Of a stretch of DNA of 64,000 nt, positions 4,717-64,000 are shown piece by piece. Position 1 is the first letter of the stretch. Every line of letters starts with the position of its first letter. Origin of the DNA: Candidatus Tayloriibacteriota bacterium. GTDB lineage: Bacteria; Patescibacteriota; Minisyncoccia; Phycocordibacterales; UBA6065. A program made the translations under genes and the position numbers. The DNA lies in assembly GCA_016215405.1 (NCBI GenBank), contig JACRJQ010000008.1:124898-188897 (forward strand), written 5' to 3'. The notes beneath the pieces are model-generated. The model saw only the letters and a list, made by a program, of their open reading frames with translations. It was not told the origin of the DNA and made no database searches.

Positions 4717-4857
4717 AATCTCTAAGCAATACATAATGGTGTGCACCAAATGTTAAGCAGAGTTCTTAGGATGGCACCAGTAGGAAGACCGGAGTCTAAC
4801 CAGAACGTCCCGAGAATATCAACTAGTAAACCGTAAAGGTTTAATTGCTTAGAGATT
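4717..4857. repeat. AT-rich island bounded by a 14-bp perfect inverted repeat (AATCTCTAAGCAAT / ATTGCTTAGAGATT); candidate structured ncRNA or MITE-like element
   Basis: Inverted repeat at 4717-4730 and 4844-4857 encloses ~113 bp of low-GC sequence in a high-GC genome. Sits between an intrinsic terminator and ruvB. Confidence 0.4.
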
Positions 4858-13243: not shown

Positions 13244-14587
13244 CTACGAGATGAGAGATCGTATGTGATTTACCTCTTGGAGAAGGATCTGGTTTGATTT
13301 TATATCCTCCTTTATCTTCTCGCATGAGTGGATCACGGTCGTATGGTCGCGGCCGCCGAGCTTCTCCCCTATCGAAGGGTATGAGATGTTCATGTCCTCG
13401 CGCAGAAGGTACATGATGACCTGGCGCGGCTTAACCACCTCCTTCTTTCGCGTTTTCTCGTAGATATGGGTCTCTTCGATGTTGTAGAAATCCGACACAA
13501 TCTTCACCACATCCTTGATCGATATCGATTTCTTGGGCTTCGAATTGTTCTTTATGAGGTTCTTTATCTCAAGGATATTGAGCTCTCGGCCTCGAAGCTG
13601 CGTCTGCATGGCGATCGAGTTGACGACGCCCTCGAGCTCGCGGATATTCCCGTCTATCGAAGATGCTAGGAATTCTAGATGCTCTTCTGGCAAAGGGATG
13701 CTCTGGCGCGAGAGCTTCGTCCTCAGTATGGATATCCTCGATTCGTAGTCGGGAGCCGATACGTCGACGATCATCCCCGACCCGAAGCGGGATTTGAGCC
13801 TGTCTTCGAGGTCCGGCATGTGGTTAGGGTGCTGATCGGACGAGCAGATGAGCTGTTTGTTCGACTCCTTGAGGGTGTTGAAGAGATGGAAGAACTCCTC
13901 CTGGGATTTTTCCTTCGAAGAGAAGAACTGTACGTCGTCCATGATGAGAACGTCGTATTTTCGGTAGCGCTCCTTGAATTGGTTGGCCTTTCCGAGCTGG
14001 ATCGAGTTCATGTAGTCGACGGCGAAGCGCTCGGAAGTCACGTAGAACACCCTTTTTGCCGGGTGATTCTGCTTTATGTGGTTTCCTACGGCTTGCATGA
14101 GATGGGTCTTGCCTCGGCCGGTGCCCCCATAGATGTAGAGCGGGTTGTACGCGATGCCGGGATTTTTCATGACGGCCTGAGCAGCCGCGTGGGCGAGCTC
14201 GTTGAAGGGCCCTACGACGAACGTCTCAAAGGTGTATTTAGGGTTGAGGTTGTCGTCCTTGCTTATGTAGAAGTCCTGAAGAGGCAATTCATAGGCGGGA
14301 AGGGCCCTCTTTGGCTCTTCGGAGACCTCCCTTCTCTCTTGGGACTTGGATATCACGTATTCGAGCGACCTCACGTCGTTGCCGAAATCCCTAAGGTATT
14401 TAAGGATGGTCTTGTGGAACTTCGAGGAGAGCCATTCTTTGGCGAATATAGAGGGGACGGCAAGATATACGACCCCATCGTCGAGCCTGTGGATATACGT
14501 ATCCCTAAACCACATATTGAAGTTAGCCTTCGAGACTTGAAGCTCGATTACCCCCAGAACGTTCTCCCAAAGCTTTTTATTATCCAT
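13244..14587 (-). CDS. dnaA: chromosomal replication initiator DnaA
   Basis: 447 aa; AAA+ Walker [11 protein letters not shown] and a C-terminal DNA-binding domain. Confidence 0.95.
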
Positions 14588-45047: not shown

Positions 45048-45087
45048 TTTACCCTTATTATATAAGCCTTTTAGAGTGCTTTGCTGT

Positions 45088-45158
45088 GCTCCCGGAGGGA
45101 TTCGAACCCCCAACAACGGTTCCGAAGACCGGTATGATATCCATTTCACTACGGGAGC
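45088..45158 (-). tRNA. tRNA-Arg (anticodon UCG)
   Basis: Cloverleaf folded by hand: acceptor GCTCCCG/CGGGAGC, D-stem GTGA/TCAT, anticodon loop CTTCGGA (U33, UCG, G37), T-arm GGGGG-TTCGAAT-CCCTC. One C:U mismatch at 27:43. Confidence 0.7.
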
Positions 45159-45248
45159 AACAGGGTAATCATACGCGAAAAGGGCGATAAATCAAAAATA
45201 TCTGGGATATTTTGAATTTTCGATGGCTTGGTGTATATTGTTTTCATC

Positions 45249-45319
45249 GCGGGTATCGTTTAGTGGTAGGACACGTCCTTGCCAAGGATGAGGTGAGAGT
45301 TCGATTCTCTCTACCCGCA
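45249..45319 (+). tRNA. tRNA-Gly (anticodon GCC)
   Basis: Acceptor GCGGGTA/TACCCGC, anticodon stem CGTCC/GGATG with loop TTGCCAA, T-arm GAGAG-TTCGATT-CTCTC. Confidence 0.85.
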
Positions 45320-45361
45320 CAAATGAAAAGGCGCCTCAGGGCGCCTTTTCATTTGTGCGGG
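45314..45361 (+). terminator. 22-bp perfect hairpin that uses the tRNA-Gly 3' acceptor strand (CCCGCACAAATGAAAAGGCGCC-TCAG-GGCGCCTTTTCATTTGTGCGGG)
   Basis: The stem includes the last 6 nt of the tRNA; likely terminator or processing structure. Confidence 0.5.
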
Positions 45362-45810
45362 TAAGCCCTGCCTTTGACAGGACGTGGAAGAATCGAAGCC
45401 ACTCTCCTATGTTTCTGAGGATGTATCCATCCCGAGAAACAGGAGACGGGTACTGCCCACGTGAGGAACGATTCTCCCCATCTCAACAAAATCTTAAATG
45501 TCCTTTACGCTTTGAAACAATTTTCCCCTCCCTCTCGTATAAAGCATTTTCTAAAAAACGACTATATTTAAGGGTATTTTGCAAAACTGTGGATAACTCT
45601 GTGGATTGTGTTTAAAAGACATGGTCTACGACCGAGTTGAGGGCCCTGTCTTTTGTCCTTGGTAGCGCTTCATAGAGCCTTATATTGACAGATTCTCGAT
45701 ATTAATCCAGAAGATAGGTGCTATGTTACATATGTAACATAATTTACTGTTTCATGTGAAATTTTAGTCGTTTTTATATTTATTTTAGGGTTATCAGGCA
45801 TACTTTCAGT

Positions 45811-46206
45811 GTGAAAATATTTACATCAGCAAATCAAAAGAGGGGTGAATTAGGCGAAAGTGTCGCGTGTAGGTTTCTGCTCGATCGAGGCTTTTCAGTC
45901 ATCGAGAGAAATTATACCCGTAAATGGGGAGAGATCGACATTATCGCTCTTCGTGGAGGAATGCTCCATTTTATAGAGGTAAAGAGCGTTTCACGTGAAA
46001 ATATCGATGATATTTCACATGAAACGGCTGGTTTAAGGCCAGAGGATCAAATGCATAGCCACAAACAAGGGAGACTGAAGAGGATGATAGAGACTTATAT
46101 CGCCGAACACAAAACGAACGCCTGGCAGTTCGATCTTTTGTGCGTCTATATAGACGAGAAATGCAAAAAGGCCAGAGTAAAGGTGATGGGGGACTTGGTG
46201 CTGTAG
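45811..46206 (+). CDS. yraN: YraN/UPF0102-family endonuclease
   Basis: RGELGESVACRFLLDRGFSVIERNY...GEIDIIAL...HFIEVKS is the YraN signature. Confidence 0.75.
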   Translation: MKIFTSANQKRGELGESVACRFLLDRGFSVIERNYTRKWGEIDIIALRGGMLHFIEVKSVSRENIDDISHETAGLRPEDQMHSHKQGRLKRMIETYIAEHKTNAWQFDLLCVYIDEKCKKARVKVMGDLVL

Positions 46207-46240
46207 CGACGTCGGGCCTAGCCTGTCTGTTTTCAGGTGA

Positions 46241-46275
46241 TCTTTTAAATATATGAAAAACCGCCTTAAGGCGGT
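46241..46275. terminator. bidirectional hairpin terminator (ATATGAAAAACCGCC-TTAA-GGCGGTTTTTCATAT)
   Basis: Immediately 3' of tRNA-Pro (minus strand) and downstream of yraN (plus strand). Confidence 0.55.
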
Positions 46276-46286
46276 TTTTCATATTG

Positions 46287-46359
46287 TCGGGGCGCTGGGA
46301 TTCGAACCCAGAGTCACTTGATCCCAAGTCAAGCATGTTAGCCGTTACACCACGCCCCG
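46287..46359 (-). tRNA. tRNA-Pro (anticodon UGG)
   Basis: Acceptor CGGGGCG/CGCCCCG, anticodon stem CTTGA/TCAAG with loop CTTGGGA, T-arm CTGGG-TTCGAAT-CCCAG. Confidence 0.85.
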
Positions 46360-46413
46360 TCTCGAAGTTTTGTCATGGTATCATGGCGCGGATATTTTTG
46401 CTATATTCTCCGC

Positions 46414-46725
46414 ATGTCTAAGAGATTCATCCGTACGATAGAGGACTTCGTCTGCGAGCGTTGCGGCAAGAAGGTTGAGGGAACTGGCTATACGAACCAC
46501 TGTCCAGCATGTCTGTGGTCGAAGCATGTAGACAAGAACCCGGGAGATAGACTCGAGGCCTGCGGGGGAATGATGGAGCCTTTTAGGGCGGAGAGAGAAG
46601 GGAAGAGGGACCTCATAGTATTTAAGTGCCTTAAATGCGGATTTCAAAGGAGGAACGAGCTATCGGCCAAAGACGATTTCGAAGCCTTCATCGCTATCAT
46701 GAAAAAGGCGTCCGCCGAAAGATAG
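46414..46725 (+). CDS. RNHCP-domain-like zinc-ribbon protein
   Basis: MSKRFIRT...CERCGKK...NHCPACLWSKHVD...CLKCGF Cys clusters; ~103 aa. Confidence 0.55.
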   Translation: MSKRFIRTIEDFVCERCGKKVEGTGYTNHCPACLWSKHVDKNPGDRLEACGGMMEPFRAEREGKRDLIVFKCLKCGFQRRNELSAKDDFEAFIAIMKKASAER

Positions 46726-47131
46726 TCAAGATGGGTTTCCTTGCGGCCCAAGAGAGCTGTTTGACAAAATTTATATAAGTTATGGAATACGGTTTCGCTT
46801 GAAAGAAAGCCGCTCTCGGACTCCTCGGCGAACGGCCTTGTCGGGAGAGGTATTACAAAAAACATCGATAATCGATCTGTGTCAACATGCCGAGGGCCCT
46901 TTGACAGGAGCTTTACGGATATTGCTCCTTTGAATGAATCTCTCTTTTGGGGCGTATAGTAGATGCGAAGGGCGGGAGACCGGCCTTCGAGAAAGGTCGT
47001 CGGTTTATACGCGAAGTTAAACGACAACGTTAAATACCATGGCAGATACCAATCGAGATCAGAAGAAGAACCCTAACAATAAGGAGAACCAGGAAGGCGG
47101 AAACAACCAGCAGTAAGCTATCTCCGCGATG

Positions 47132-47168
47132 AAAGCCTCCAGACACCCGTCTGGAGGCTTTTGTTTTT
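47132..47168 (+). terminator. intrinsic terminator
   Basis: AAAGCCTCCAGAC-ACCC-GTCTGGAGGCTTTTGTTTTT. Confidence 0.55.
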
Positions 47169-47198
47169 ACCGCTTCTTTGATAGCATGGATTTCGCTC

Positions 47199-47269
47199 GC
47201 GGGCGTAATTTAGTGGTAGAATGACTGCCTTCCAAGCAGTAAGTCCGGGTTCGATTCCCGGCGCCCGCA
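47199..47269 (+). tRNA. tRNA-Gly (anticodon UCC)
   Basis: Acceptor GCGGGCG/CGCCCGC, anticodon stem ACTGC/GCAGT with loop CTTCCAA, T-arm CCGGG-TTCGATT-CCCGG. Confidence 0.85.
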
Positions 47270-54251: not shown

Positions 54252-55394
54252 CTATTCAGAGGAGACTTCGTCCAGAGAGGCTTCTTTGACGCCGCCGACA
54301 GGGCGGATGTCTATCTTCCAGCCAGTGAGCTTTGCGGCGAGGCGGACGTTCTGCCCCCCCTTTCCGATAGCGAGAGACTGCTGGTCCTCAGAGACCTCGA
54401 CGGTCGCGGTCTTCGCGGATTCGTCGAGCTTTATCGAAGACACCTTCGCCGGAGAGAGCGCGTCTTCGATGAACTTCTTCTGGTCTGCCGACCATTCGAT
54501 GATGTCGATCTTCTCGCCGCCGAGCTCCGAGGTCACGGTCGATACGCGGACGCCGCGCTGGCCGACGAGCGACCCGATAGGGTCTATATGAGCGTCGTTC
54601 GAGATGACCGCGATCTTGGACCTCGATCCCGCTTCGCGGGCGACAGCCTTCACTTCGACGGTCTTGTTAGCGATCTCAGGGGCCTCGATCTCGAAGAGCT
54701 TCTCGAGGAATTTAGGATGGGAGCGGGAGAGCTTGAGGAATACGCCTCGAGGAGACTCCTCTACCCGGAAGAGGAACGCGCGGATCCTCTCGCCTGGCCT
54801 GAAATGCTCGGAGCGTATCTGCTCTTCGAACGGCAAGACGCCGACGGCTCGGCCCATATCCACGAATATAGTCCCTCGCTCGATGCGCTGGACGGTGCCC
54901 GATACGATGTCGCCCTCTCTCTTGCCGTACTCGCCCAGGACGGATACCTTCTCGGCTTCGCGTATCTTTTGGATGATCACCTGCTTCGCGGTCTGAGCAG
55001 CTATCCTTCCGAAGTCGTCCTTAGGCTCGAGAGGGAAGAGCATCTCTTCGTCGAGCTCCGCCGACTTCTTTATCATGCGGGCCTCGTCCATCCAGATGTG
55101 ATGCTCCGGATTGTAGCGGACGCGCTCGTCGTCCGGGGAGAGCTCCGGCAGCTCTTCGCCTTCGGGGATGTCGATCACCCTCGATTCGTCGACTACTATC
55201 TTTACCTGGAAGAATTCGGTGGCGCCAGTATTTACGTCGAACGTGGCGCGCACGATCTGACCGCGCTTTCCATATTCCTTCTTGTATGCGGTCGCGAGGG
55301 CCGCTTCGATAGCCTCGATTATCCTCTCTCTCGGTATGCCGCGTTCCTCTTCGAGCTGGCTGAGGACCGAATGTATCACTTTTAGGTCGAACAT
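54252..55394 (-). CDS. nusA: transcription termination/antitermination factor NusA
   Basis: MFDLKVIHSVLSQLEEERGIPRE... N-terminal, S1 and two KH domains; ~380 aa from the internal Met. Confidence 0.9.
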   Translation of the reverse strand: MFDLKVIHSVLSQLEEERGIPRERIIEAIEAALATAYKKEYGKRGQIVRATFDVNTGATEFFQVKIVVDESRVIDIPEGEELPELSPDDERVRYNPEHHIWMDEARMIKKSAELDEEMLFPLEPKDDFGRIAAQTAKQVIIQKIREAEKVSVLGEYGKREGDIVSGTVQRIERGTIFVDMGRAVGVLPFEEQIRSEHFRPGERIRAFLFRVEESPRGVFLKLSRSHPKFLEKLFEIEAPEIANKTVEVKAVAREAGSRSKIAVISNDAHIDPIGSLVGQRGVRVSTVTSELGGEKIDIIEWSADQKKFIEDALSPAKVSSIKLDESAKTATVEVSEDQQSLAIGKGGQNVRLAAKLTGWKIDIRPVGGVKEASLDEVSSE

Positions 55395-55559
55395 TGTGCT
55401 GTATTGATTTTTTCTAAAAAAACGAGTCCGCCGCGAGGCGAACTTTCGATTCATATATGTTATCACGGTCAGAGGCTTCGGTCAACGCCCTTGTTCCGCG
55501 GCCTCGTATCGACCGCTACCGTGATATCATTTATCCCATAATCGATACACATACAATAT

Positions 55560-58500
55560 ATGTCACATGTAGCACGCAGGTTCGGTATCGCGATGTTGTC
55601 GGTCATGACGCTCGTTCTGCCGATCGTCGCGTCTGCCCAGGCGTTCGAGCCGCAAAAGGCGGTCGTCCTAGCTCGGATAGCGGTCCTCGACGGCGTCATA
55701 CAGGGCCAGGAAGGGAACGCGCTCTCGCTCTCGTTCAGGCTCAAGAATGACGGCGAGCCGACCGCGGCCATACGCTATAGCGCGGTCCTCTACGACGAGT
55801 CGATGTCGGCCCAAGCCCATGAGTATGTCGCTCCCGAGGAATTGTCCCTCGGCGGCCGCGAAGTCCGCGAGATATCTTTCACGTATAAGGTTCCGGACGC
55901 CCTCTCGGGGACGTACAAGCTCGCTCTTCGCGCCCAGCTCTCGTCGGGCATGCCTCTTTCTCTTTTCGTCTTTCCGCAGACGGTGACCTTCGAATCGAAG
56001 GGCGGAGGGCTTGTCGTCGACCAAGGCTCGTGCCTCCTCCGGGTCGAGGGCGAGGACGAATCGAAATTCTATACGACGAGGCAGGGGGTCGATATCCTCC
56101 CCTCTGAGAGCCTTGTCGGCTCCTGCTTCGTGAGGAACACAGGGACGGAGGAGGTCTCCGCGAGGGCCGCGTTCGATACCTATCAACGATCGAGGAGCGG
56201 CCCGCGCGTAGGCGATCAGGCCCTCTCGTCGGAGCTTTACGCGTTCGCATCGGGCGAGGAGAAGAGGGTCGACTTAAGGATCCCCTCGCCGCAAGAGGCT
56301 CAGGCGTACGACGCGGTCGCTTACTTCGTCTCGGAAGGAAAGGCTGTCTCGAACGACGTAGACTTCCATTATGTCGTAAGGGGAGCGAGCGCTACTATCC
56401 AGACTTTCTCTCTCGATAAGGTCTCCTACGCGGTAGGGGAAGAGGCTCGCGCAAGGCTCGTCTGGTCCCGCTCGGCCGATTCTTTTCCGGATTCGAGGCT
56501 GGGATCGGGGTCGCCCCTCGCCTCGCCGATGGCTACTGTCTCCTTGTTTTCAGGCAAAGACAGATGCGCTTCGGACCAGACCGTGCCGCTCGATCGCGAC
56601 GGCGTCCCGACGGAATTCTCCATAGCGATCGAAGAAAAGTGCCCGGATGTCCGCGCCCTCGTGTCGATATCGGATGAAGGGAGGCCTCTCGCCTCTTTCG
56701 ACTACAAGGTCGAGCTTCCGCGCGCGGCTTTGCCTTGGAAGACCGTCGCTTATGGGGCGTTCGGAGCAGTTCTTTTGGCCGCGCTCGTCGCTTTCAAGCT
56801 TCGGTCTAAGGATAGGTCGGGCGCCATACCGCTCGCGATGCTCCTTCTCGCCGGCGCCTTACTCTCTCCTCAGCTCGCCCGCGCGGGCGCGCAGACCGTC
56901 ACATGGACGGACCGCGGCAATAACAATCTGAGCGGCACGATAACCGTCGCCGATAGCTTTAACGAAGGAAGCGACGTGACTTTCACGGCCGATTTCAGCA
57001 AGAGATATCAATGGTGCACGAACGGCGCCACGAGGGACCTTACTTTCGGCTATAAGATACTCAATAGCCAGGACGAGGTCGTCGCCCATAGAGGCGCGAT
57101 AAGGACAGAGGTCGTCTCCGAGAACGTGGGCCAGCTCGCCGTCGGATCATATCGTCTCATCGCTTCGTTCGGCGAAGGGAACGGCACCATCACAGGCTAT
57201 ACGGATTCGACGTGCACCACGTATGTCGACTACGACGGCGATGGCTATGACGACGACAGCTATGAAGTGCAGTGTCGGATACCTATATATGGAGACCTGG
57301 CGAACGCAGAGCTTCCGTTTACGGTGAATGCGGTCGCTAAATCTCCGGACGGCTGGGTGGATAGCGCGGATTGCAACGCTATCAACGGCTGGACGTTCGA
57401 CGCCGACTCGGAAGCGACCTCGATCCAAGTCCATTTCTATAACGGCCCTGCTGGATCGGGCCAGTGGATAGGCGCGATCACGGCCGATTCGGGCCGTCCC
57501 GACGTGAACCAGGCTTACGGCATCTCCGGTAATCATGGATTTAGCTTCACTCCGCCTGCGAGCCTAAAGACAGGAGCCGAGATAAACGTATACGCATACG
57601 GCATCGGAGTGAATTCCTCGGGAGGGAACGACGGCCTCAATAGCCAGCTCTCGGGAACTCCGAAGACGTTTAGGTGCGCCGTCCCTGACGTCTGCGCCAA
57701 TATCGCTGGCGATCAAGCGAGCGTGCCCGGCGACCGCGTCCAGAGCGGACCGAATTGCGTCTGCCCTGCGGATAAGGTCGAGAACGGCTCAGGGCAGTGC
57801 GTTGCTCCCGACCTCGGCACGCCGACCGTGAACGTGTCCGCGAGCCCTCGGTCGATCTCTCCCGGCGGATCCGTGACCGTCTCGTCGGTGGCGGAAGGTT
57901 CGGGTCTCACCCATCACGGCTTCGAGGAGAGGTATAACGGAGGCGCTTGGCAGAACATCGGAGGCTTCTCTCCGATAAGCGGGCAGGCGCGGTCGGTGTC
58001 GAGGAATCCGTCGTTCGAAGGCACGTATGAATATCGAGCATACGCGAGCAACACGAACGGAGCGTCGTATGTATATGCGTCCCCGGTATCCGTATCCGTC
58101 ACTTCCGCTCCTCAGCCTTCGCAATGCTCGAACGGGCTCGACGACGACAACGACGGTCTCATCGACTATCCGAGCGATCCGGGCTGTACGGGATCTTCGG
58201 ATAACGACGAGTACAACACGGTCGTCATAAATCCGATCAACGGCATCTCCTATATCTCGGTCCCTTCTCCCGTCGCCGCGGGCACCGATTTCTCCGTGCG
58301 AGCGAGGAATAGCGGGACAAAGCCTTGGGGAAGCTCTCACGACCTTCTTTTGGCCACGGCGGACCTGTCTTCGAACATAGCCCTCGCTGACCTCGATCCT
58401 ACGATATCCGGAGGCGACAAAGTCGTGACGTTCAGGGCGCCTTCCATTCCGGGGACCTATGCGCTCCGGGCGGTCGAGCAGAACGTCGAATATTTCGGGC

Positions 58501-59111
58501 AGAACCAGTCGTTTCAAGTGACCGCGAATTCTTGTGACGATTGCGGCACGACCGATGTCTGTCCGAATATCGCCGGCACCCAGTCGAGCGTTCCGAACGG
58601 AATGACGGTCGACGGGAGCGGCAACTGCGTGACGAGCGGCTCGGGCACGGGAGGCAACGGCACCAATCCTGGCGGCGGAACCAATAATCCGCCCGGGTCC
58701 GGATTCACGGTTTCCGGCACATCGATCGTTCCTATACAGTTCATCGCCGACCTGCCGGCAAAATCCCAGAACGCTTCGATCTCGATCAACCCGGTCTCGT
58801 TCAGCGCGCCAGTCGTGCTCTCCGTCCAATCGATAGCTTCGGCTCAAGGGGCGGCGCTTCCTCAGGGCGTCACACCTACGTATTATTTCGGCGACAGAGA
58901 GGTCTCGTCGATGCTCCTTACCTTCGATCCGAACATCGGCACCTATCGCGATTCGAACGGGGCGATAGGCACGACCTTCTCGGTCAAGCTCTCGAAGAAG
59001 GTCGCCGAAAGCTATTTCGTCACCCTTATCGGCTCCTCCGGGACGAGGCAGGCCACGATGAGGATAGAGGTCGATCCGAACAATCTTAATCCTGAGTTCA
59101 GAGAATTCTAG
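55560..59111 (+). CDS. very large cell-surface protein (1183 aa) with signal peptide, mid-protein TM segment, Cys-rich repeats and the conserved C-terminal ~130-aa module
   Basis: Signal MSHVARRFGIAMLSVMTLVLPIVASAQA; duplicated VC(A/P)NIAG(D/T)Q(A/S)SVP motif; C-terminus ...VKLSKKVAESYFVTLIGSSG...NNLNPEFREF. Confidence 0.7.
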   Translation: MSHVARRFGIAMLSVMTLVLPIVASAQAFEPQKAVVLARIAVLDGVIQGQEGNALSLSFRLKNDGEPTAAIRYSAVLYDESMSAQAHEYVAPEELSLGGREVREISFTYKVPDALSGTYKLALRAQLSSGMPLSLFVFPQTVTFESKGGGLVVDQGSCLLRVEGEDESKFYTTRQGVDILPSESLVGSCFVRNTGTEEVSARAAFDTYQRSRSGPRVGDQALSSELYAFASGEEKRVDLRIPSPQEAQAYDAVAYFVSEGKAVSNDVDFHYVVRGASATIQTFSLDKVSYAVGEEARARLVWSRSADSFPDSRLGSGSPLASPMATVSLFSGKDRCASDQTVPLDRDGVPTEFSIAIEEKCPDVRALVSISDEGRPLASFDYKVELPRAALPWKTVAYGAFGAVLLAALVAFKLRSKDRSGAIPLAMLLLAGALLSPQLARAGAQTVTWTDRGNNNLSGTITVADSFNEGSDVTFTADFSKRYQWCTNGATRDLTFGYKILNSQDEVVAHRGAIRTEVVSENVGQLAVGSYRLIASFGEGNGTITGYTDSTCTTYVDYDGDGYDDDSYEVQCRIPIYGDLANAELPFTVNAVAKSPDGWVDSADCNAINGWTFDADSEATSIQVHFYNGPAGSGQWIGAITADSGRPDVNQAYGISGNHGFSFTPPASLKTGAEINVYAYGIGVNSSGGNDGLNSQLSGTPKTFRCAVPDVCANIAGDQASVPGDRVQSGPNCVCPADKVENGSGQCVAPDLGTPTVNVSASPRSISPGGSVTVSSVAEGSGLTHHGFEERYNGGAWQNIGGFSPISGQARSVSRNPSFEGTYEYRAYASNTNGASYVYASPVSVSVTSAPQPSQCSNGLDDDNDGLIDYPSDPGCTGSSDNDEYNTVVINPINGISYISVPSPVAAGTDFSVRARNSGTKPWGSSHDLLLATADLSSNIALADLDPTISGGDKVVTFRAPSIPGTYALRAVEQNVEYFGQNQSFQVTANSCDDCGTTDVCPNIAGTQSSVPNGMTVDGSGNCVTSGSGTGGNGTNPGGGTNNPPGSGFTVSGTSIVPIQFIADLPAKSQNASISINPVSFSAPVVLSVQSIASAQGAALPQGVTPTYYFGDREVSSMLLTFDPNIGTYRDSNGAIGTTFSVKLSKKVAESYFVTLIGSSGTRQATMRIEVDPNNLNPEFREF

Positions 59112-59119
59112 AAGATACG

Positions 59120-59149
59120 AAAAACCCCGCTATTGGCGGGGTTTTTCGT
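59120..59149 (+). terminator. intrinsic terminator
   Basis: AAAAACCCCGC-TATTG-GCGGGGTTTTTCG. Confidence 0.6.
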
Positions 59150-59245
59150 ATATCTGCGGAGCCTTCGCGGAGATAGCTTTCGCACGCCGCGGGCGATGGG
59201 GAAAACGAGGGGCATCATCGAAGGGTTTTCTCTGGTATCATCTTC

Positions 59246-60538
59246 TTGATGCGAATAAAGCTAGGAAACGCCGTTTTCGATAGAAATCCTGCGGCTTTAG
59301 CTTTCTTTGTTTGGTTCACGCTCGCTTTCGTCCTCGTATTCGCTTTTGGCCATGCCGTGCATGCCCAAGGAGTGTGGACGCAGACGAGCGGTCCCACGAA
59401 TATCGCGGGCCCGACCGGTTGCCATTATGAAGAAGAGTGCACCGACCAATCTGGCTGGTCGAATGCTTTTAGGGCAGGACAGTCTTGCTCGAGCGTAGGA
59501 TCTTCTGTCACATGCTATTTTAACGACAGCGCTTCGGGTTGCGGTACGGATAAGGTGCAAGGTTTCTTTAGGACGAGGTATCAGTATTCCTGCCAGGCTA
59601 TCCAGTCTTGTCCCTCCCCGATCGATCTCTGCGGGTCGCCCTCAGGCGGACAGCCGTCCGTCCCTTCGAGCTTCAGTTCGGCGTGCTCAGCGAACGGCGG
59701 ATCGACGAGCGTCACGTTCGACGGGACGATCGGGTGCAATCCGTCTCAGTATCCGCCAGAAGGAGGCAGGGATTGGACCGCGACCTGCAGCGCGTGCGCG
59801 CCCGCCTATTCCCAAGGCTATTATTACGGGCAGGGATATTATGAAGGCTACTACTACGGCCAGGGATACTATTATTCCCAGGGATATTACCAAGGCTACT
59901 ACTACGGACAAGGCTACTATTACAGCCAAGGAACCTATCAGGGAGCTTATTATGCGCAGGGATATTACCAAGGCTACTACTACGGACAAGGCTACTATTA
60001 CAGCCAAGGGACGTATCAGGGATACTACTATACTCAGGGCTACTACTACGGCCAGGGATACTATTATTCTCAAGGATATTATCAGGGCTATTATTACGGG
60101 CAGGGGTATTACTACGGCCAGGGATACTATTATTCTCAATCTTCGTATCTTCCTCCTCCCGGCTTCACTCTCGGCGGGACAGAGGCTATAAAGATACGAT
60201 TCCTCGAGGCGGGCGCGTCAGATTCGGAGCCAAAGGCGATCCCGGTGAACGCGGTGAGCGGATTTACGGGCAACGTCTCGGTGTCGATAACATCGAGCCC
60301 GGCTTTGCCGAACGGCGCGGCTATCAGATACTCGTGGAACGGAGGCGAGTGGTCATCGAATCCGAGCCCGATACTCATACCTTACGAAGGGTCCGCCACG
60401 CTAAGAGTCCAGGTATCGAAGAAGGTCTCTGGCACCTATGTGATCACCCTTACGGGCACCTCTCCTGGATATTCGAGCGTGACCAAAGACCTCATACTCA
60501 CTCCGACGACGCTCACCCCCGTATTTCAGGAGACCTAA
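59246..60538 (+). CDS. secreted Cys-rich protein with long (Q/S)GYYYG Tyr-Gly-Gln-rich tandem repeats and the conserved C-terminal module
   Basis: Signal/TM ALAFFVWFTLAFVLVFAFGHAVHA; Cys-rich domain; ~110 aa of QGYYYGQGYYYSQGYY repeats; C-terminus ...VSKKVSGTYVITLTGTSPG...LTPVFQET. Confidence 0.7.
   Translation: MMRIKLGNAVFDRNPAALAFFVWFTLAFVLVFAFGHAVHAQGVWTQTSGPTNIAGPTGCHYEEECTDQSGWSNAFRAGQSCSSVGSSVTCYFNDSASGCGTDKVQGFFRTRYQYSCQAIQSCPSPIDLCGSPSGGQPSVPSSFSSACSANGGSTSVTFDGTIGCNPSQYPPEGGRDWTATCSACAPAYSQGYYYGQGYYEGYYYGQGYYYSQGYYQGYYYGQGYYYSQGTYQGAYYAQGYYQGYYYGQGYYYSQGTYQGYYYTQGYYYGQGYYYSQGYYQGYYYGQGYYYGQGYYYSQSSYLPPPGFTLGGTEAIKIRFLEAGASDSEPKAIPVNAVSGFTGNVSVSITSSPALPNGAAIRYSWNGGEWSSNPSPILIPYEGSATLRVQVSKKVSGTYVITLTGTSPGYSSVTKDLILTPTTLTPVFQET
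59806..60140 (+). repeat. in-frame tandem repeat (78-nt unit, 24-nt sub-period) encoding the YYYGQG-type low-complexity region
   Basis: A near-identical 54-nt block cagggatattaccaaggctactactacggacaaggctactattacagccaagg starts at 59879 and again at 59957. Confidence 0.7.
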
Positions 60539-60571: not shown

Positions 60572-60611
60572 GCGCTTCGCCTGATATGATTATCAGGCGA
60601 AGCGTTTTTTG
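60572..60611 (+). terminator. intrinsic terminator
   Basis: GCGCTTCGCCTGATA-TGAT-TATCAGGCGAAGCGTTTTTTG. Confidence 0.6.
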
Positions 60612-60640
60612 CCGCGCCGCGGCTCCTAATAAAAATCGAT

Positions 60641-61816
60641 TTGATGAAAAAGAAAATCCTCTCGGGCATGATCGTTCTTGCAGCGGTCTTGCTTTCGCCG
60701 GCAGGGGTCGACGCCCAATGGTCTGCCCCTACGCAGGCGCCTCCGGGAGGGAACGTGTCCGCTCCGATCAATGTCGGGTCTACGGCCCAGGTAAAGAACG
60801 GAGGGCTCTCGGTAAACGCTTTTACCGCCTGGCTCGATTCATATTTCGCAGGCAATGTTGGGGTGGGGGTCCTAAGCCCGACTCAAAAGCTCGACGTCGC
60901 GGGAGGTTTTCGGGTGGGCAACGGCAATGTGATCCACAACGTCGCGCACGGCAACTATGGCGTGCAGATGCTCAGGGCTGCCGATAACGGGGGAGGGGCC
61001 GGAGATGCCGGCCTCTATTACTGGATAAGCGAGCCGAGCGCGACATGGACGGGGGCTGGGATCGCGAGGAATATGAGGAACAGCAGCGCCGCGTTTCCTC
61101 GCGTGAACGCTTCTCTTTCCGGTCAGATGATCAGGTTCGACGAGGGGACAGGGATAAATTTCACCGTGGAGACGTCGGGAGGATCGAGGACGACGCCTCT
61201 CTCGGTGAGCGCCGGACAGACGGCGATGACGGGCAATCTCTGCCTTAACGGCACCTGCTATAGCAGCTGGCAATCCGGACCTCAAGGCCCTCAGGGTCCC
61301 GCTGGAAGCACTGGCGCCACTGGACCTCAAGGCCCGCAAGGCCCCGCAGGAAATACCGGAGCTACCGGACCTCAAGGCCCGCAAGGCCCGACCGGTCTTA
61401 CGGGAGCAACGGGTCCGCAAGGCCCTTCTGGACCTCAGGGTCCTGCGGGTCCGACCGGTAACACGGGTGCTACGGGAGCTCAAGGCCCGCAAGGCCCCGC
61501 AGGAAATACCGGAGCTACCGGACCTCAAGGCCCGCAAGGTCCACAGGGCCCGCAAGGGCCGACCGGAAGCACCGGAGCTACCGGCCCTCAAGGCCCTCAG
61601 GGTCCTGCCGGACCAGGCACGACTAAATTTAACGTTTCTGTATGGAGCATCTCTGCGGCGAGCGGCTGCTATCCTCCGAACGGCTCCCCGTGCGGAAACT
61701 GGAATCTTACCGCTGGGCATCGATACTGCTACCCCATGGGCTATGCGACCGGTATGATCGTAGAACAGACGGGCAATAACTCATGGGACTCCGCCGAAGT
61801 CGCCTGCTGGTACTAA
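60641..61816 (+). CDS. secreted collagen-like triple-helix repeat protein with tail-fibre-like N-terminal domain
   Basis: Signal peptide ending ...[22 protein letters not shown]; [18 protein letters not shown] motif; ~39 G-X-Y triplets ([18 protein letters not shown]...); Cys-containing C-terminal globular domain. Confidence 0.75.
61264..61617 (+). repeat. collagen-like G-X-Y coding repeat (9-nt period; 45-153-nt higher-order units)
   Basis: An exact ~50-nt block caaggccccgcaggaaataccggagctaccggacctcaaggcccgcaagg is duplicated 153 nt apart. Confidence 0.7.
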
Positions 61817-61912
61817 ACAGCGAGGAAATCGTATCGCGTTCCCAGCTCTGTGCCTCCTTTGCACGTTTCTTGTCCTTTGAGCCTTGACCCCCTGCCTGAT
61901 ATGATAGTAGGG

Positions 61913-63124
61913 ATGAGATTCTCATTTTTTCTTAAGATAGCCTTTGCGATCGTCCTCCTTTCGTCTCCCCTTTTCTCGCATGCGGGGACCGAGCATAATA
62001 TGACCGGCTATGCGTGGTCCTCGAATATCGGCTGGATAAGCTTCAACTGCACGAACGAATCTACCTGCGGGACCGTGAACTACGGAGTGAACAAGGCTGC
62101 TGATGGGACGATGACGGGATATGCGTGGTCTTCGGCGATCGGGTGGATACAGTTCGGCGGTCTCTCGGGTTTCCCTTCGGGGTCCGGAACCACCGCGGTA
62201 AACGCACAGGTCGTAGGGTCGAACGTGCAAGGGTGGGCGCGAGCACTCTCATATAGCGGGACATGGGACGGCTGGATATCCCTCGCCGGCACGTCTCCAA
62301 GTTACGGAGTCACTCACTCCGGAGGGTCTTTTGCGGGCTACGCCTGGGGAGGCGAGGTCGTGGGCTGGGTCCTCTTTGACGTTCAGGGCGTCTATCCCGC
62401 GATCTGTAGCGACTGCGGCGTCACGATCGAAGGTGATGCGTCCCTCGACATAAAATCGGGAGGGGTCAGCATCGTGGGTAACGGAGCGGTCCCTTACGGC
62501 ACGATTCCCGTATTCGAATGGACTCTCGTCAACATGCCTGTCGGCACGACATGCAGTGTTTCCAAGACCTCGGCTGGCGGCACCTCTTTCACGACCATAA
62601 CAAACATCGGCGCGTCGGGGACCTATACCGGAAGCGCACTTACGAACACTTCCTATACCTATCAGATAAGCTGCACGAACGGAGTCCTCAAGACGGCGAG
62701 CTTCACGGTCGCGCCTCAGCCTCCGGGATTCTCGCTCGGCTCTAGCGAGACGGTCGCTATCCAATTCGTGTCTCCAGGGTCGGCGGTCTCTGAGGAGAAA
62801 TCTGTGTTCGTGAACGCTATCGGAGGATACTCTAATCCGGTGACGATCTCGATAACCGGCTTTCCGCCCGCGATCGCTTCGACGACGTTCTCATACTCGT
62901 TCAATGGAGGCTCATCCTATTCCTCCTCGCCGACAGCAAATATAACGAGCCCTTATTCTTCCGGCATCGGATTTAAGGTTCGAGTGACGAGGCTCTCCGG
63001 AGCGCCTGCGTTCACCGGACCTTACACCATAACTCTCACAGGCACCGGATCCGGCGCGCCGAACGCAACCAAGAGCATGATCATAAATCCGACTTCTTTC
63101 ATCCCGAAGTTCGAAGAGTTCTAA
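61913..63124 (+). CDS. secreted protein with Trp-rich GYAWSxxIGWIxF repeats and the conserved C-terminal module
   Basis: Start MRFSFFLKIAFAIVLLSSPLFSHAG; three copies of (M/A)TGYAW(S/G)..(I/V)GW(I/V).F; C-terminus ...ITLTGTGSGAPNATKSMIINPTSFIPKFEEF. Confidence 0.65.
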   Translation: MRFSFFLKIAFAIVLLSSPLFSHAGTEHNMTGYAWSSNIGWISFNCTNESTCGTVNYGVNKAADGTMTGYAWSSAIGWIQFGGLSGFPSGSGTTAVNAQVVGSNVQGWARALSYSGTWDGWISLAGTSPSYGVTHSGGSFAGYAWGGEVVGWVLFDVQGVYPAICSDCGVTIEGDASLDIKSGGVSIVGNGAVPYGTIPVFEWTLVNMPVGTTCSVSKTSAGGTSFTTITNIGASGTYTGSALTNTSYTYQISCTNGVLKTASFTVAPQPPGFSLGSSETVAIQFVSPGSAVSEEKSVFVNAIGGYSNPVTISITGFPPAIASTTFSYSFNGGSSYSSSPTANITSPYSSGIGFKVRVTRLSGAPAFTGPYTITLTGTGSGAPNATKSMIINPTSFIPKFEEF

Positions 63125-63134
63125 TCAATACATC

Positions 63135-63428
63135 ATGAAGAAAACAGCATATATAGCATTGGCGGCAGTATTGGCAGGAGGATTCGTGTGGTATCTCACG
63201 AACGGAGAGGTGGGAGTCCCTCAAGGCGGCGATGCGTCGGTGCCGCTTACTGAAGAGGAGAGGATAGCCGAGCTCGATAGGCTCTCCTCTTCGTCCGTGC
63301 CGGTCGAGGAAGAGGAAGAGGAGAGGGTAGAGGCTCTCGAAAAGCTCTCTGCCTCGAGTACCCCTGTCGACGCCTCTATCGAGGAGAGGTTAAGAGCTCT
63401 CGACGCCCTTGAGAGATCGAGCCGTTAA
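63135..63428 (+). CDS. small membrane-anchored acidic protein
   Basis: 97 aa; TM AYIALAAVLAGGFVWYL; Glu-rich repeats. Confidence 0.4.
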   Translation: MKKTAYIALAAVLAGGFVWYLTNGEVGVPQGGDASVPLTEEERIAELDRLSSSSVPVEEEEEERVEALEKLSASSTPVDASIEERLRALDALERSSR

Positions 63429-63464
63429 ACAATAGCCTTTTATTAAGAATCGCTTATCAAGCCT

Positions 63465-64000
63465 ATGAACTATCGAACCATCGCATCGGCCCTCGCCATC
63501 GCTTCGCTCGCCCTGCCGTTTTCGGCATCGGCGCAATGGTCTGCTCCGACCCAGTCGCCTCCGAACGGGAACGTATCGGCGCCGATAAACACCGGAACCG
63601 GCACCCAGGCTAAGAATGGCAACCTGTCGGTGAATGCCTTTAGCGCGGTCCTGAACTCCTATTTCTCTCAGAACCTCGGCGTCGGAAATTCGAACCCGAG
63701 CGAGAAGCTCGTCGTGGGAGACGATTTTGGCGTCCTTACAGGAGCGCCGTCAAAAGGCGTCGTGTTCGGAAACACGGGGGGAAGCTTCTATTTTTACACA
63801 GGCCAGAGCTCAACGAGGAACATCTCCTTCGCTTGGCTTTACAACGCTACCCCAGCGAGCGCTTACGGCCAAATACAGACGTTCAGCCGGTCGAACCCTC
63901 TCTACATAGACGGTTCCCAACTCTATCTCAACGCGCAGTCTGCTGCGGGAAATGTCGGCGTGGGAAATACGATCCCTGGATACAAGCTCGACGTCACCGG
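63465..64000 (+). CDS. paralog of the collagen-like/tail-fibre-like protein N-terminal domain (partial; runs off window end)
   Basis: [67 protein letters not shown]...NVGVGNTIPGYKLDVT, open to the last base. About 60% identical to the 60641 protein N-terminus. Confidence 0.65.
   Translation, partial: MNYRTIASALAIASLALPFSASAQWSAPTQSPPNGNVSAPINTGTGTQAKNGNLSVNAFSAVLNSYFSQNLGVGNSNPSEKLVVGDDFGVLTGAPSKGVVFGNTGGSFYFYTGQSSTRNISFAWLYNATPASAYGQIQTFSRSNPLYIDGSQLYLNAQSAAGNVGVGNTIPGYKLDVT

Follow-up and report, generated by a model that had tools for sequence, protein, structure and literature searches.

In a 64,000-nt stretch of the genome of a Candidatus Tayloriibacteriota bacterium (contig JACRJQ010000008.1; hereafter, the window), we analyzed a plus-strand gene (59246/59249..60538 in the list of open reading frames (ORFs), with a TAA stop at 60536-60538) that encodes a secreted protein of 430 amino acids (aa) with an internal repeat of Tyr, Gly and Gln. 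The repeat is translated in the frame of the secreted protein, and it represents a single copy of a portable module almost confined to candidate phyla radiation bacteria (CPR, or Patescibacteria). We tentatively propose, with a probability of roughly 0.4, that this module, uncharged and multivalent, works as a tyrosine "velcro" by which surface domains are tethered or anchored. CPR bacteria account for a large part of the diversity of bacteria and spend their lives attached to other cells; to our knowledge, their surface and attachment molecules are mostly unannotated. The gene upstream of the one studied here (55560..59111) encodes MBI5134602.1 (HZA81_04480) of a Candidatus Taylorbacteria metagenome-assembled genome (MAG), which places the window in the Parcubacteria group of Patescibacteria. 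Literature searches with the motif strings, with "tyrosine-rich" combined with Parcubacteria or Patescibacteria, and with the C-terminal and cluster motifs described below retrieved nothing relevant, and the module is apparently undescribed in the literature searched.

The repeat and the protein that contains it

The module (aa 188-298; 59807..60139, plus strand), delimited by composition, Tandem Repeats Finder (TRF) and parsing of the units, extends from YSQGYYYGQGYYEGYYYGQGYYYSQGYYQ to GYYYSQ and consists of 52 Tyr, 27 Gly, 20 Gln, 6 Ser, 3 Thr, 2 Ala and a single Glu, which is the only charged residue among the 111. Tyr accounts for 47% of the module, and Tyr, Gly, Gln and Ser together for 95%. 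Against the Tyr background of 3.0% in 12 other genes of the window, the binomial probability of at least 52 Tyr in 111 residues is 9 × 10−49, and a DNA pattern for YYYGQGYY has 7 matches in the window vs. 0.00 in 100 shuffles. The original prediction divided this segment into 8-aa units, which proved to be wrong: there are 14 hexapeptides of the form [Q/E]G-x-Y-Y-x (usually QGYYY[G/S/T/A]) along with 6 tetrapeptides (QGYY/QGTY), and together these build super-units of 16 aa (48 nt) and 26 aa (78 nt). The periods found by TRF are 18, 30, 48, 66 and 78 nt, all of them multiples of 3, and Gly residues are spaced by 2, 4 or 6 positions, never by 3. The 78-nt period (59861-60046; 2.4 copies, 86% matches) contains the longest exact repeat, a duplicate of 53 nt (59879..59931 and 59957..60009, plus strand), in agreement with the coordinates, the period and the duplicate blocks of the original prediction, which had given the length of the blocks as 54 nt.

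A single reading frame yields both a signal peptide before the repeat and a conserved C-terminal domain after it, whereas the remaining five frames contain stops or a mirror-image string rich in I, V and L. Comparison of the 12 QGYYYx hexapeptide units gives 188 synonymous vs. 41 nonsynonymous codon differences, which indicates that the peptide rather than the DNA is conserved. The frame assumed in the original prediction agrees with all three of these observations. The Logan contig SRR12113407_236869 is identical to window positions 54498-59875 (0 mismatches) and ends 69 nt inside the repeat, where 31-mers cease to be unique; the existence and the start of the repeat, but not its copy number, are thereby independently confirmed. 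A second Logan contig (L045), corresponding to 61510-64000, begins within the collagen repeats of the next gene. The repeat is thus not the artefact of one assembler, and neither a frame error nor, for the existence and the start of the repeat, a faulty assembly, the two possibilities that could have undermined the original prediction, was borne out. Several assemblies break within repeats of this kind, and because such repeats interrupt short-read assemblies, module genes are expected to be systematically truncated in MAGs.

The candidate start codons of the gene are TTG at 59246 and ATG at 59249, the latter being the start called on Logan contig L044 (locus position 4752). The sequence suggests a Sec-type signal peptide (aa 1-40; 59246..59365, plus strand), MMRIKLGNAVFDRNPAALAFFVWFTLAFVLVFAFGHAVHA, with cleavage before QG: its n-region contains K/R, its hydrophobic core spans 20 residues, and the predicted cleavage motif, VHA followed by Q, has small residues at −3 and −1. 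In a model obtained with AlphaFold2 (AF2), aa 14-35 form a helix. The signal peptide is followed by an orphan Cys-rich head domain (aa 41-187; 59366..59806, plus strand), delimited by composition, which has no homologue and no model match. The head contains 12 Cys (59, 65, 81, 90, 99, 116, 122, 129, 147, 164, 181 and 184), consistent with the earlier description of a secreted, Cys-rich protein. Behind the module lies a predicted immunoglobulin (Ig)/PapD-like beta-sandwich domain (aa 299-430; 60140..60535, plus strand), recognized by alignment to paralogues, profile search and AF2, and the gene is followed by a hairpin resembling an intrinsic terminator (60572..60615, plus strand), with a 15-bp stem and a T-run.

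With the repeat deleted, the 430-aa protein has no homologue at E ≤ 0.01 among 5.8 × 10^9 proteins, so that there is no orthologue series for the gene; the whole protein retrieved only proteins that have the repeat in common with it. Exact-sequence look-ups gave no match for the gene with either start codon, for dnaA or for the downstream 424-aa ORF read from a GTG at 61850, whereas neighbouring genes could be traced. Searches of the ORF against Pfam, NCBIfam and PHROGs gave no meaningful match (0 families in NCBIfam), the sole Pfam match at E ≤ 1 being K319L-like_PKD (0.048), in the C-terminal domain. The repeat has no relative in a sequence search of the PDB. The AF2 model of the whole protein, built without an alignment, has a mean predicted local distance difference test score (pLDDT) of 43 and is uninformative for the repeat, which appears as short hairpins with a pLDDT of about 27-60.

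A module class in CPR bacteria

We define the module class by tandem [Q/E]GYYY[G/S/T/A] and [Q/E]GYY units with at least 40% Tyr and no K, R or D, together with a signal peptide or membrane anchor at the N-terminus and a Patescibacteria genome; the window module has the units and the Tyr content, and it occurs behind a signal peptide in a Patescibacteria genome. A census of one genome from each of 185,579 species, using a degenerate DNA pattern for the decapeptide QGYYYGQGYY, identified 23 stretches, compared with about 0.01 expected by chance by our own estimate. Of these, 21 are labelled Patescibacteria, from Saccharibacteria, Gottesman-, Colwell-, Nomura- and Kaiserbacteria, Parcubacteria and Paceibacterota. 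The other two belong to an unclassified bin and to a 'Gammaproteobacteria' MAG (L002), where the protein is homologous to those of CPR. These counts support the earlier suggestion that such repeats are rare in bacteria, and the metagenome search that had been proposed along with it recovered 20 stretches with the decapeptide from 241 million records. Two motif patterns found no copy in viral contigs, and a phage origin of the module was rejected on this basis.

Across 61 modules (4,107 residues; 16-196 residues per module), the composition is Y 44.4, G 21.7, Q 14.8, S 6.2, A 4.3, T 3.2 and E 2.3%, with essentially no K, R, D or W, almost no aliphatic residues and about 0.6% Pro. The units comprise 300 QGYYY[G/S/A/T] and 129 QGYY, plus variants with E for Q. 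The module is always located in extracytoplasmic proteins, frequently at a free end, and we distinguish at least 6 unrelated architectures: (i) in small proteins that contain an unannotated 'FxIDHPLDPxNKLLYHSFVESPDVKN' domain, right behind the signal peptide; (ii) at the very C-terminal end of proteins of 780-980 aa that combine PG_binding_1 with bacterial Ig-like domains (L006, L015, L017 and L041); (iii) directly before a Hint/intein-type domain (PT-HINT, 8 × 10−11), with the junction ...Y-x-C-F-x-A-G-T (L002, L005:1785-2837 and L013, the last being a type (ii) protein plus a Hint domain); (iv) in alternation with six-Cys knots (L019); (v) as the tail, at the C-terminus, of a pilin-like protein whose gene is the last in a run of prepilin-type genes (L001 and L031, in Saccharibacteria); and (vi) between globular domains, as in the window ORF, L012, L020, L022 and L043 (PKD domains). 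Cysteine knots or other disulfide-type domains are frequently found beside the module, and some genomes encode several module proteins (L012 and L020-22 in Colwellbacteria; L010, L016 and L017 in Saccharibacteria). Matches to SBSN_GxHH, Conotoxin (L019) and NF058595 (P0008) were dismissed as compositional or sub-threshold.

Two of these architectures deserve a further remark. The Hint junction suggests autoprocessing, by which the Tyr repeat would become a new C-terminus and might be moved onto another molecule. The pilin-like genes (L001:5998-6834 and L031:2-646, both minus strand) come last after 2-5 prepilin-type genes and were identified by the N-terminal G-F-T-L-L motif and these neighbours, with no match in Pfam; the N-terminus reads RGFTLLIAV, lacking Glu5, and the Tyr tail measures about 110 aa in L001 and 61 aa up to the end of the contig in L031.

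The module varies in length, and close relatives have exchanged the domains that flank it. The L009 and L032 proteins share 93% identity in their heads, whereas their modules measure 28 vs. 40 residues and their Cys-rich C-terminal domains are unrelated. Conversely, P0005 and L033 have near-identical C-terminal domains (BLAST aligned the last 24 residues only, at 95.8% identity, and the remainder was judged by eye) and unrelated heads; P0003 and L026 have heads that are 55% identical and unrelated tails; and L017 encodes two near-identical paralogues with different tails. The longest DNA words shared by modules within one genome measure 12-22 nt, compared with a median of 15 and a 95th percentile of 24 between genomes. 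Because the shared words are no longer within than between genomes, ongoing gene conversion among the modules of one genome is not supported.

Type (i) proteins (the P0004 family; L014, L018, L023, L046:6460-8312 and L047:6421-8213) illustrate the variability of the module within one family. Their domain, for which we found no match in Pfam, NCBIfam, PHROGs or PDB sequences (the last searched with P0004), has 2,158 members at E ≤ 1 × 10−5, and all the named ones are CPR. Among the best 121 of these 2,158, 66 have no insert between the signal peptide and the domain, and about 50 contain Tyr-rich repeats of several types ((QGYYYx)n, (QSYY)n, (SQxTYY)n, YGYGQGYYY or YQYQYE), mostly beginning immediately behind an AxA-type cleavage site. 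This survey indicates that the module is optional and variable in length and that it forms the free end of the mature protein. Within the family, the repeat may be there or missing, and its length differs, which, together with the L009/L032 pair, supports, among relatives, the length variability anticipated in the original prediction; the QGYYY module is the strict end of a wider class of Tyr-rich repeats. Type (i) genes often form tandem triplets with the Tyr repeat only in the last copy.

At 21 of the 43 related loci, the module gene adjoins members of one unannotated Cys/His-rich family (44 ORFs in a single BLAST network). The cluster consists of 2-5 paralogous proteins with an N-terminal membrane anchor, many conserved Cys and His, and the motifs FRNACSHS, C-x-H-G-x-G-H-G and WGGEN, and none of these proteins has a match in Pfam, NCBIfam, PADLOC or PDB sequences. 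It was found at L002, L005, L006, L008, L010, L011, L013, L015, L017-L019, L021, L023 (L023:1548-6437, minus strand, as an example), L028, L030, L032, L035, L036, L038, L039, L041, L046 and L047, where L046 and L047 are two further loci fetched via module-less type (i) proteins. In both of these, only the third of three tandem type (i) paralogues has the Tyr repeat, and it is this copy that abuts the cluster. At 9 loci, the first cluster gene, encoded on the same strand, begins within 64 nt 3' of the module gene. The family is missing from 22 loci, at 14 of which the sequence available downstream is shorter than 2.1 kb. The gene order, namely the module protein followed by the B, C, (C) and A paralogues, is maintained across different module architectures, with the module gene next to the cluster encoding a type (i) protein in Kaiserbacteria and Paceibacterota and a type (ii) protein in Saccharibacteria. 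In subfamily B (about 405 aa), six His and at least 12 Cys are invariant among the members from Saccharibacteria and Parcubacteria, and subfamily A (480-540 aa) shows a weak, sub-threshold similarity to cupredoxin/plastocyanin-like domains at its N-terminus (E = 0.05-0.06). This arrangement suggests that the Cys/His-rich cluster is a specific partner of the module.

Possible functions of the module

Under the proposed mechanism, the dense tyrosines would form many weak pi-stacking and hydrogen-bond contacts, with Gly and Gln serving as flexible spacers between them, and the segment would adhere to its own copies or to polymers of the envelope or of the host surface, so that the fused domain would be tethered or anchored at the cell surface. 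In the window protein, the module would be the link between the Cys-rich head and the C-terminal sandwich and would keep the two within the surface layer. Enzymatic modification or cross-linking of the tyrosines might reinforce the contacts, which we regard as a separate and weaker suggestion. The adhesive, cross-linking or phase-separating behaviour put forward in the original prediction is an analogy drawn from composition. Because copies occur at free N- and C-termini, the module appears to be autonomous and not a mere linker, and its near-constant composition, signs of selection on the peptide, restriction to one lineage, occurrence as a shared tag, frequent disulfide-type flanking domains and association with the cluster in relatives count in favour of an anchor, as do the collagen-like and Peptidase_S74 fibre-type proteins encoded next to the window gene.

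Several observations weigh against a tether. The whole-protein AF2 model, with its mean pLDDT of 43, is uninformative on the putative self-association or binding. The module is internal in the window protein, where a plain spacer would explain it equally well. One of the matches is labelled Gammaproteobacteria (L002), even though the protein is homologous to those of CPR, and a census with a single exact decapeptide biases the taxonomic picture towards the strictest form of the repeat. Finally, no ORF with a cluster motif was found in window positions 1-64000 (59 kb upstream and 3.5 kb downstream of the gene) or in the additional 383 nt of L045, and the evidence for a partner accordingly comes from relatives only and bears on the module class.

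It is somewhat unlikely that the module is a passive spacer or stalk that only sets the distance from the head to the C-terminal domain, for example across the wall or the S-layer, without binding activity of its own, similar to the Pro/Thr-rich or collagen-like stalks of Gram-positive surface proteins. Such a role would fit the internal position in the window protein and in L012, L020, L022 and L043, the highly variable length (16-196 aa) of a module that is dispensable within one family, and the presence of a collagen-like stalk protein in the next gene. Many copies, however, occupy a free N- or C-terminus, where there is nothing to space; the tight composition (no charge, 44% Tyr) and the mostly synonymous differences between units would be needless in a mere spacer; and coupling to a conserved gene cluster is not expected of an inert linker. 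The conserved gene order and the invariant His and Cys of subfamily B, along with the weak cupredoxin-like domain of subfamily A, are compatible with the module being a substrate for tyrosine chemistry (dityrosine, DOPA-type or Tyr-Cys links) that yields a covalent adhesive or sheath, with the Cys/His-rich proteins acting as metal-dependent modifiers, and cross-linked materials rich in Tyr are known from resilin, spore coats and oocyst walls. We nevertheless consider this explanation unlikely, given that searches of Pfam, NCBIfam, PADLOC and PDB sequences related the family to no known enzyme, that its repeated C-x-x-G-x-G units could be a non-catalytic scaffold, that the window contains no cluster gene, and that no oxidase, peroxidase or tyrosinase was seen nearby, the neighbours at related loci having been screened by motif only.

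An ordered fibre, whether a cross-beta structure, a stack of beta-hairpins or a solenoid rod, resembling a functional amyloid or a fibre stalk, is quite improbable. The even unit lengths (4 and 6 aa), the short strands with Gly/Gln turns in the first half of the AF2 model (pLDDT of about 47-60) and the position of the module where fibrous proteins have their stalks, next to collagen-like and S74-chaperone fibre genes, are compatible with it, but the AF2 confidence is far too low, the PDB holds no sequence relative, and the irregular mixing of 4- and 6-residue units and the free variation in length are at odds with a fixed rung geometry. Since Gly residues are never 3 positions apart, the module is not collagen-like or polyproline II-like either. 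Domain swaps located exactly at the module (L009/L032, P0005/L033 and P0003/L026), the 53-nt exact internal duplicate and the breaking of contigs at the repeats would be accounted for by a device acting mainly at the DNA level, which provides homologous junctions for cassette shuffling or copy-number change and has little role as a protein. Yet the units encode a conserved peptide with synonymously scrambled codons, so that DNA identity stays low, and modules of the same genome share no longer DNA matches than modules of different genomes, which makes this explanation very improbable. An assembly artefact or a non-coding repeat is hardly credible. Short-read assemblies fail to cross the repeat, and its copy number could have been collapsed or expanded, but the independent contig is identical into the repeat, the frame is kept from the signal peptide to the conserved C-terminal domain, and the same peptide repeat recurs in dozens of unrelated assemblies.

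Beyond the tether itself, it is conceivable, although rather unlikely, that the Tyr module and the Cys/His-rich cluster constitute a CPR-specific extracellular system in which the tails are captured or oxidatively cross-linked into an adhesive or protective matrix. Through such a system, ultrasmall episymbionts may fix pili, wall enzymes and adhesins to their own cells or to their hosts, and it may be a bacterial counterpart, by analogy, of dityrosine/DOPA bioadhesives or of FUS-like sticky condensates. The repeats might, in addition, be junctions at which surface-protein cassettes are shuffled. Three features for which we found no Pfam or NCBIfam model and no description in the literature searched emerge from this analysis: the Tyr module, its candidate partner cluster and the C-terminal P-x-F-x-E-[F/I] domain described below. 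On pilin-like, peptidoglycan-binding, Hint-domain and small surface proteins, the module is recognizable and restricted to one lineage. Should it indeed serve as a tag that sticks or can be cross-linked, it would be a rare bacterial case of extracellular low-complexity 'sticker' chemistry, would offer a handle for finding CPR surface proteomes, and might represent a new protein-material motif.

The genomic neighbourhood and comparison with known systems

The 430-aa gene is part of a same-strand run of surface-protein genes, and its C-terminal domain (132 residues) aligns with the C-termini of two neighbouring ORFs at 36-41% identity (39% identity and E = 2 × 10−27 for the domain of the downstream paralogue in tblastn). 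One paralogous domain (58701..59108, plus strand) ends the upstream 1183-aa surface protein (MBI5134602.1) with PEFREF; the other (62720..63121, plus strand) ends a downstream protein of 424 (or 403) aa with PKFEEF. An exhaustive profile search with the domain retrieved 146 representatives, 48 of them at E ≤ 1 × 10−10. The domain has about 128 aa, is almost always the last element of the protein with no transmembrane helix behind it, and ends in P-x-[F/Y/W]-x-E-[F/I/L]-COOH (NPDFREI, PKFEEF, PGWQEI etc.); the window protein, ending in PVFQET, agrees at 5 of the 6 motif positions, the last residue being Thr and not hydrophobic. With an alignment of 34 sequences, AF2 predicts a beta sandwich (pLDDT 95), for which the fold matches are generic Ig/PapD-like ones only (template modelling score of about 0.5). 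This domain, which has no Pfam or NCBIfam model, may be a sorting or anchoring signal.

The upstream 1183-aa protein (55560-59111) has hydrophobic segments in mid-protein (about aa 390-470), an acidic double-disulfide repeat (NF033662, E = 2 × 10−5, aa 852-878) and repeated 'CPNIAGTQ/CANIAGDQ' motifs, and it may be a fusion of two surface modules. The next gene downstream of the 430-aa gene (60641-61816) encodes a collagen-like protein (Pfam Collagen, 1 × 10−14) with about 40 GPQ/GPA/GPT triplets in tandem arrays (61270-61605), an N-terminal domain marked by a 19-residue string and a C-terminal end with Cys; the repeats of this gene, too, interrupt the Logan assembly. The protein encoded at 61850-63124 combines three N-terminal copies of GYAWSSNIGWISF with the shared C-terminal domain, and this motif is likewise found at the head of many proteins in the P-x-F-x-E-[F/I] family (e.g., P0011, P0016, P0021 and P0048). 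The last gene of the window (63465-64000, continuing to 64319 on L045:1956-2810) encodes a 284-aa secreted protein with a C-terminal Peptidase_S74 intramolecular-chaperone domain and an N-terminus paralogous to that of the collagen-like protein. Peptidase_S74 domains are typical of trimeric fibres and tail spikes, and this one marks an apparently chromosomal fibre-protein gene in a CPR genome. Elsewhere in the window, dnaA (13244-14587, i.e., 13.2-14.6 kb, minus strand) indicates that the window is near the replication origin, and four tRNA genes (45087-47269) lie in a stretch of low GC content (44-48 kb; 46-49% vs. about 56%).

Judged by sequence, the module belongs to none of the known systems with which we compared it. 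Models in Pfam and NCBIfam for curli and functional amyloids, CW_binding_1, GW, SLH and high-molecular-weight (HMW) glutenin do not match it, nor does the Collagen model (PF01391) match the 430-aa ORF at E ≤ 1, in contrast to the neighbouring ORF (1 × 10−14). The likeness to FUS-type SYGQ domains noted in the original prediction is valid for composition and fails for grammar. Like the low-complexity (LC) domains of the FUS family and low-complexity aromatic-rich kinked segments (LARKS), the module is at least 90% S/Y/G/Q (95% Y/G/Q/S in the window protein), has Tyr flanked by Gly, Ser or Gln, lacks charge and varies in length. Multivalent Tyr 'stickers' are the accepted basis of FUS-family self-association, and the FUS LC domain contains about 13% Tyr. 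The module, however, contains three to four times as much (44-47%), arranged in strict YYY/YY blocks within 4- and 6-residue tandem units instead of the dispersed [G/S]Y[G/S] spacing of about 1 Tyr per 8 residues, and it is extracellular and bacterial, with no RNA-binding partner domain and no sequence homology to FUS in Pfam or the PDB.

Wheat HMW glutenin (PGQGQQ and GYYPTSPQQ), spider silk (GPGGY/GPGQQ) and resilin are likewise secreted structural proteins built of short tandem Gln/Gly/Tyr units, often placed between Cys-containing terminal domains that cross-link, but their repeats depend on Pro (beta-turn spirals), compared with about 0.6% Pro in the module, and are eukaryotic and non-homologous. 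The Bacillus spore-coat proteins CotC/CotU/CotG, Eimeria oocyst-wall proteins and mussel foot proteins resemble the module in their high Tyr content and in forming extracellular protective or adhesive layers, and the possible dedicated modifier encoded near the module in relatives would be a further likeness to Tyr cross-linked materials; those proteins are charged (Lys/Asp-rich), whereas the module is uncharged. The collagen-like proteins Scl1/Scl2, BclA and Lcl have the same layout as the window protein, with a signal peptide, a variable head, a length-variable repeat in the middle and a conserved C-terminal part, although the module lacks the Gly-X-Y periodicity. The wall-binding repeats (choline-binding CW_binding_1, GW, SLH and LysM) are folded, measure 20-80 aa and have defined ligands, and none of their models matches the module. 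Nonetheless, they too are aromatic-rich modules located at either end of diverse secreted proteins, with many such proteins per genome, which is the same logic as that of the anchoring proposed here.

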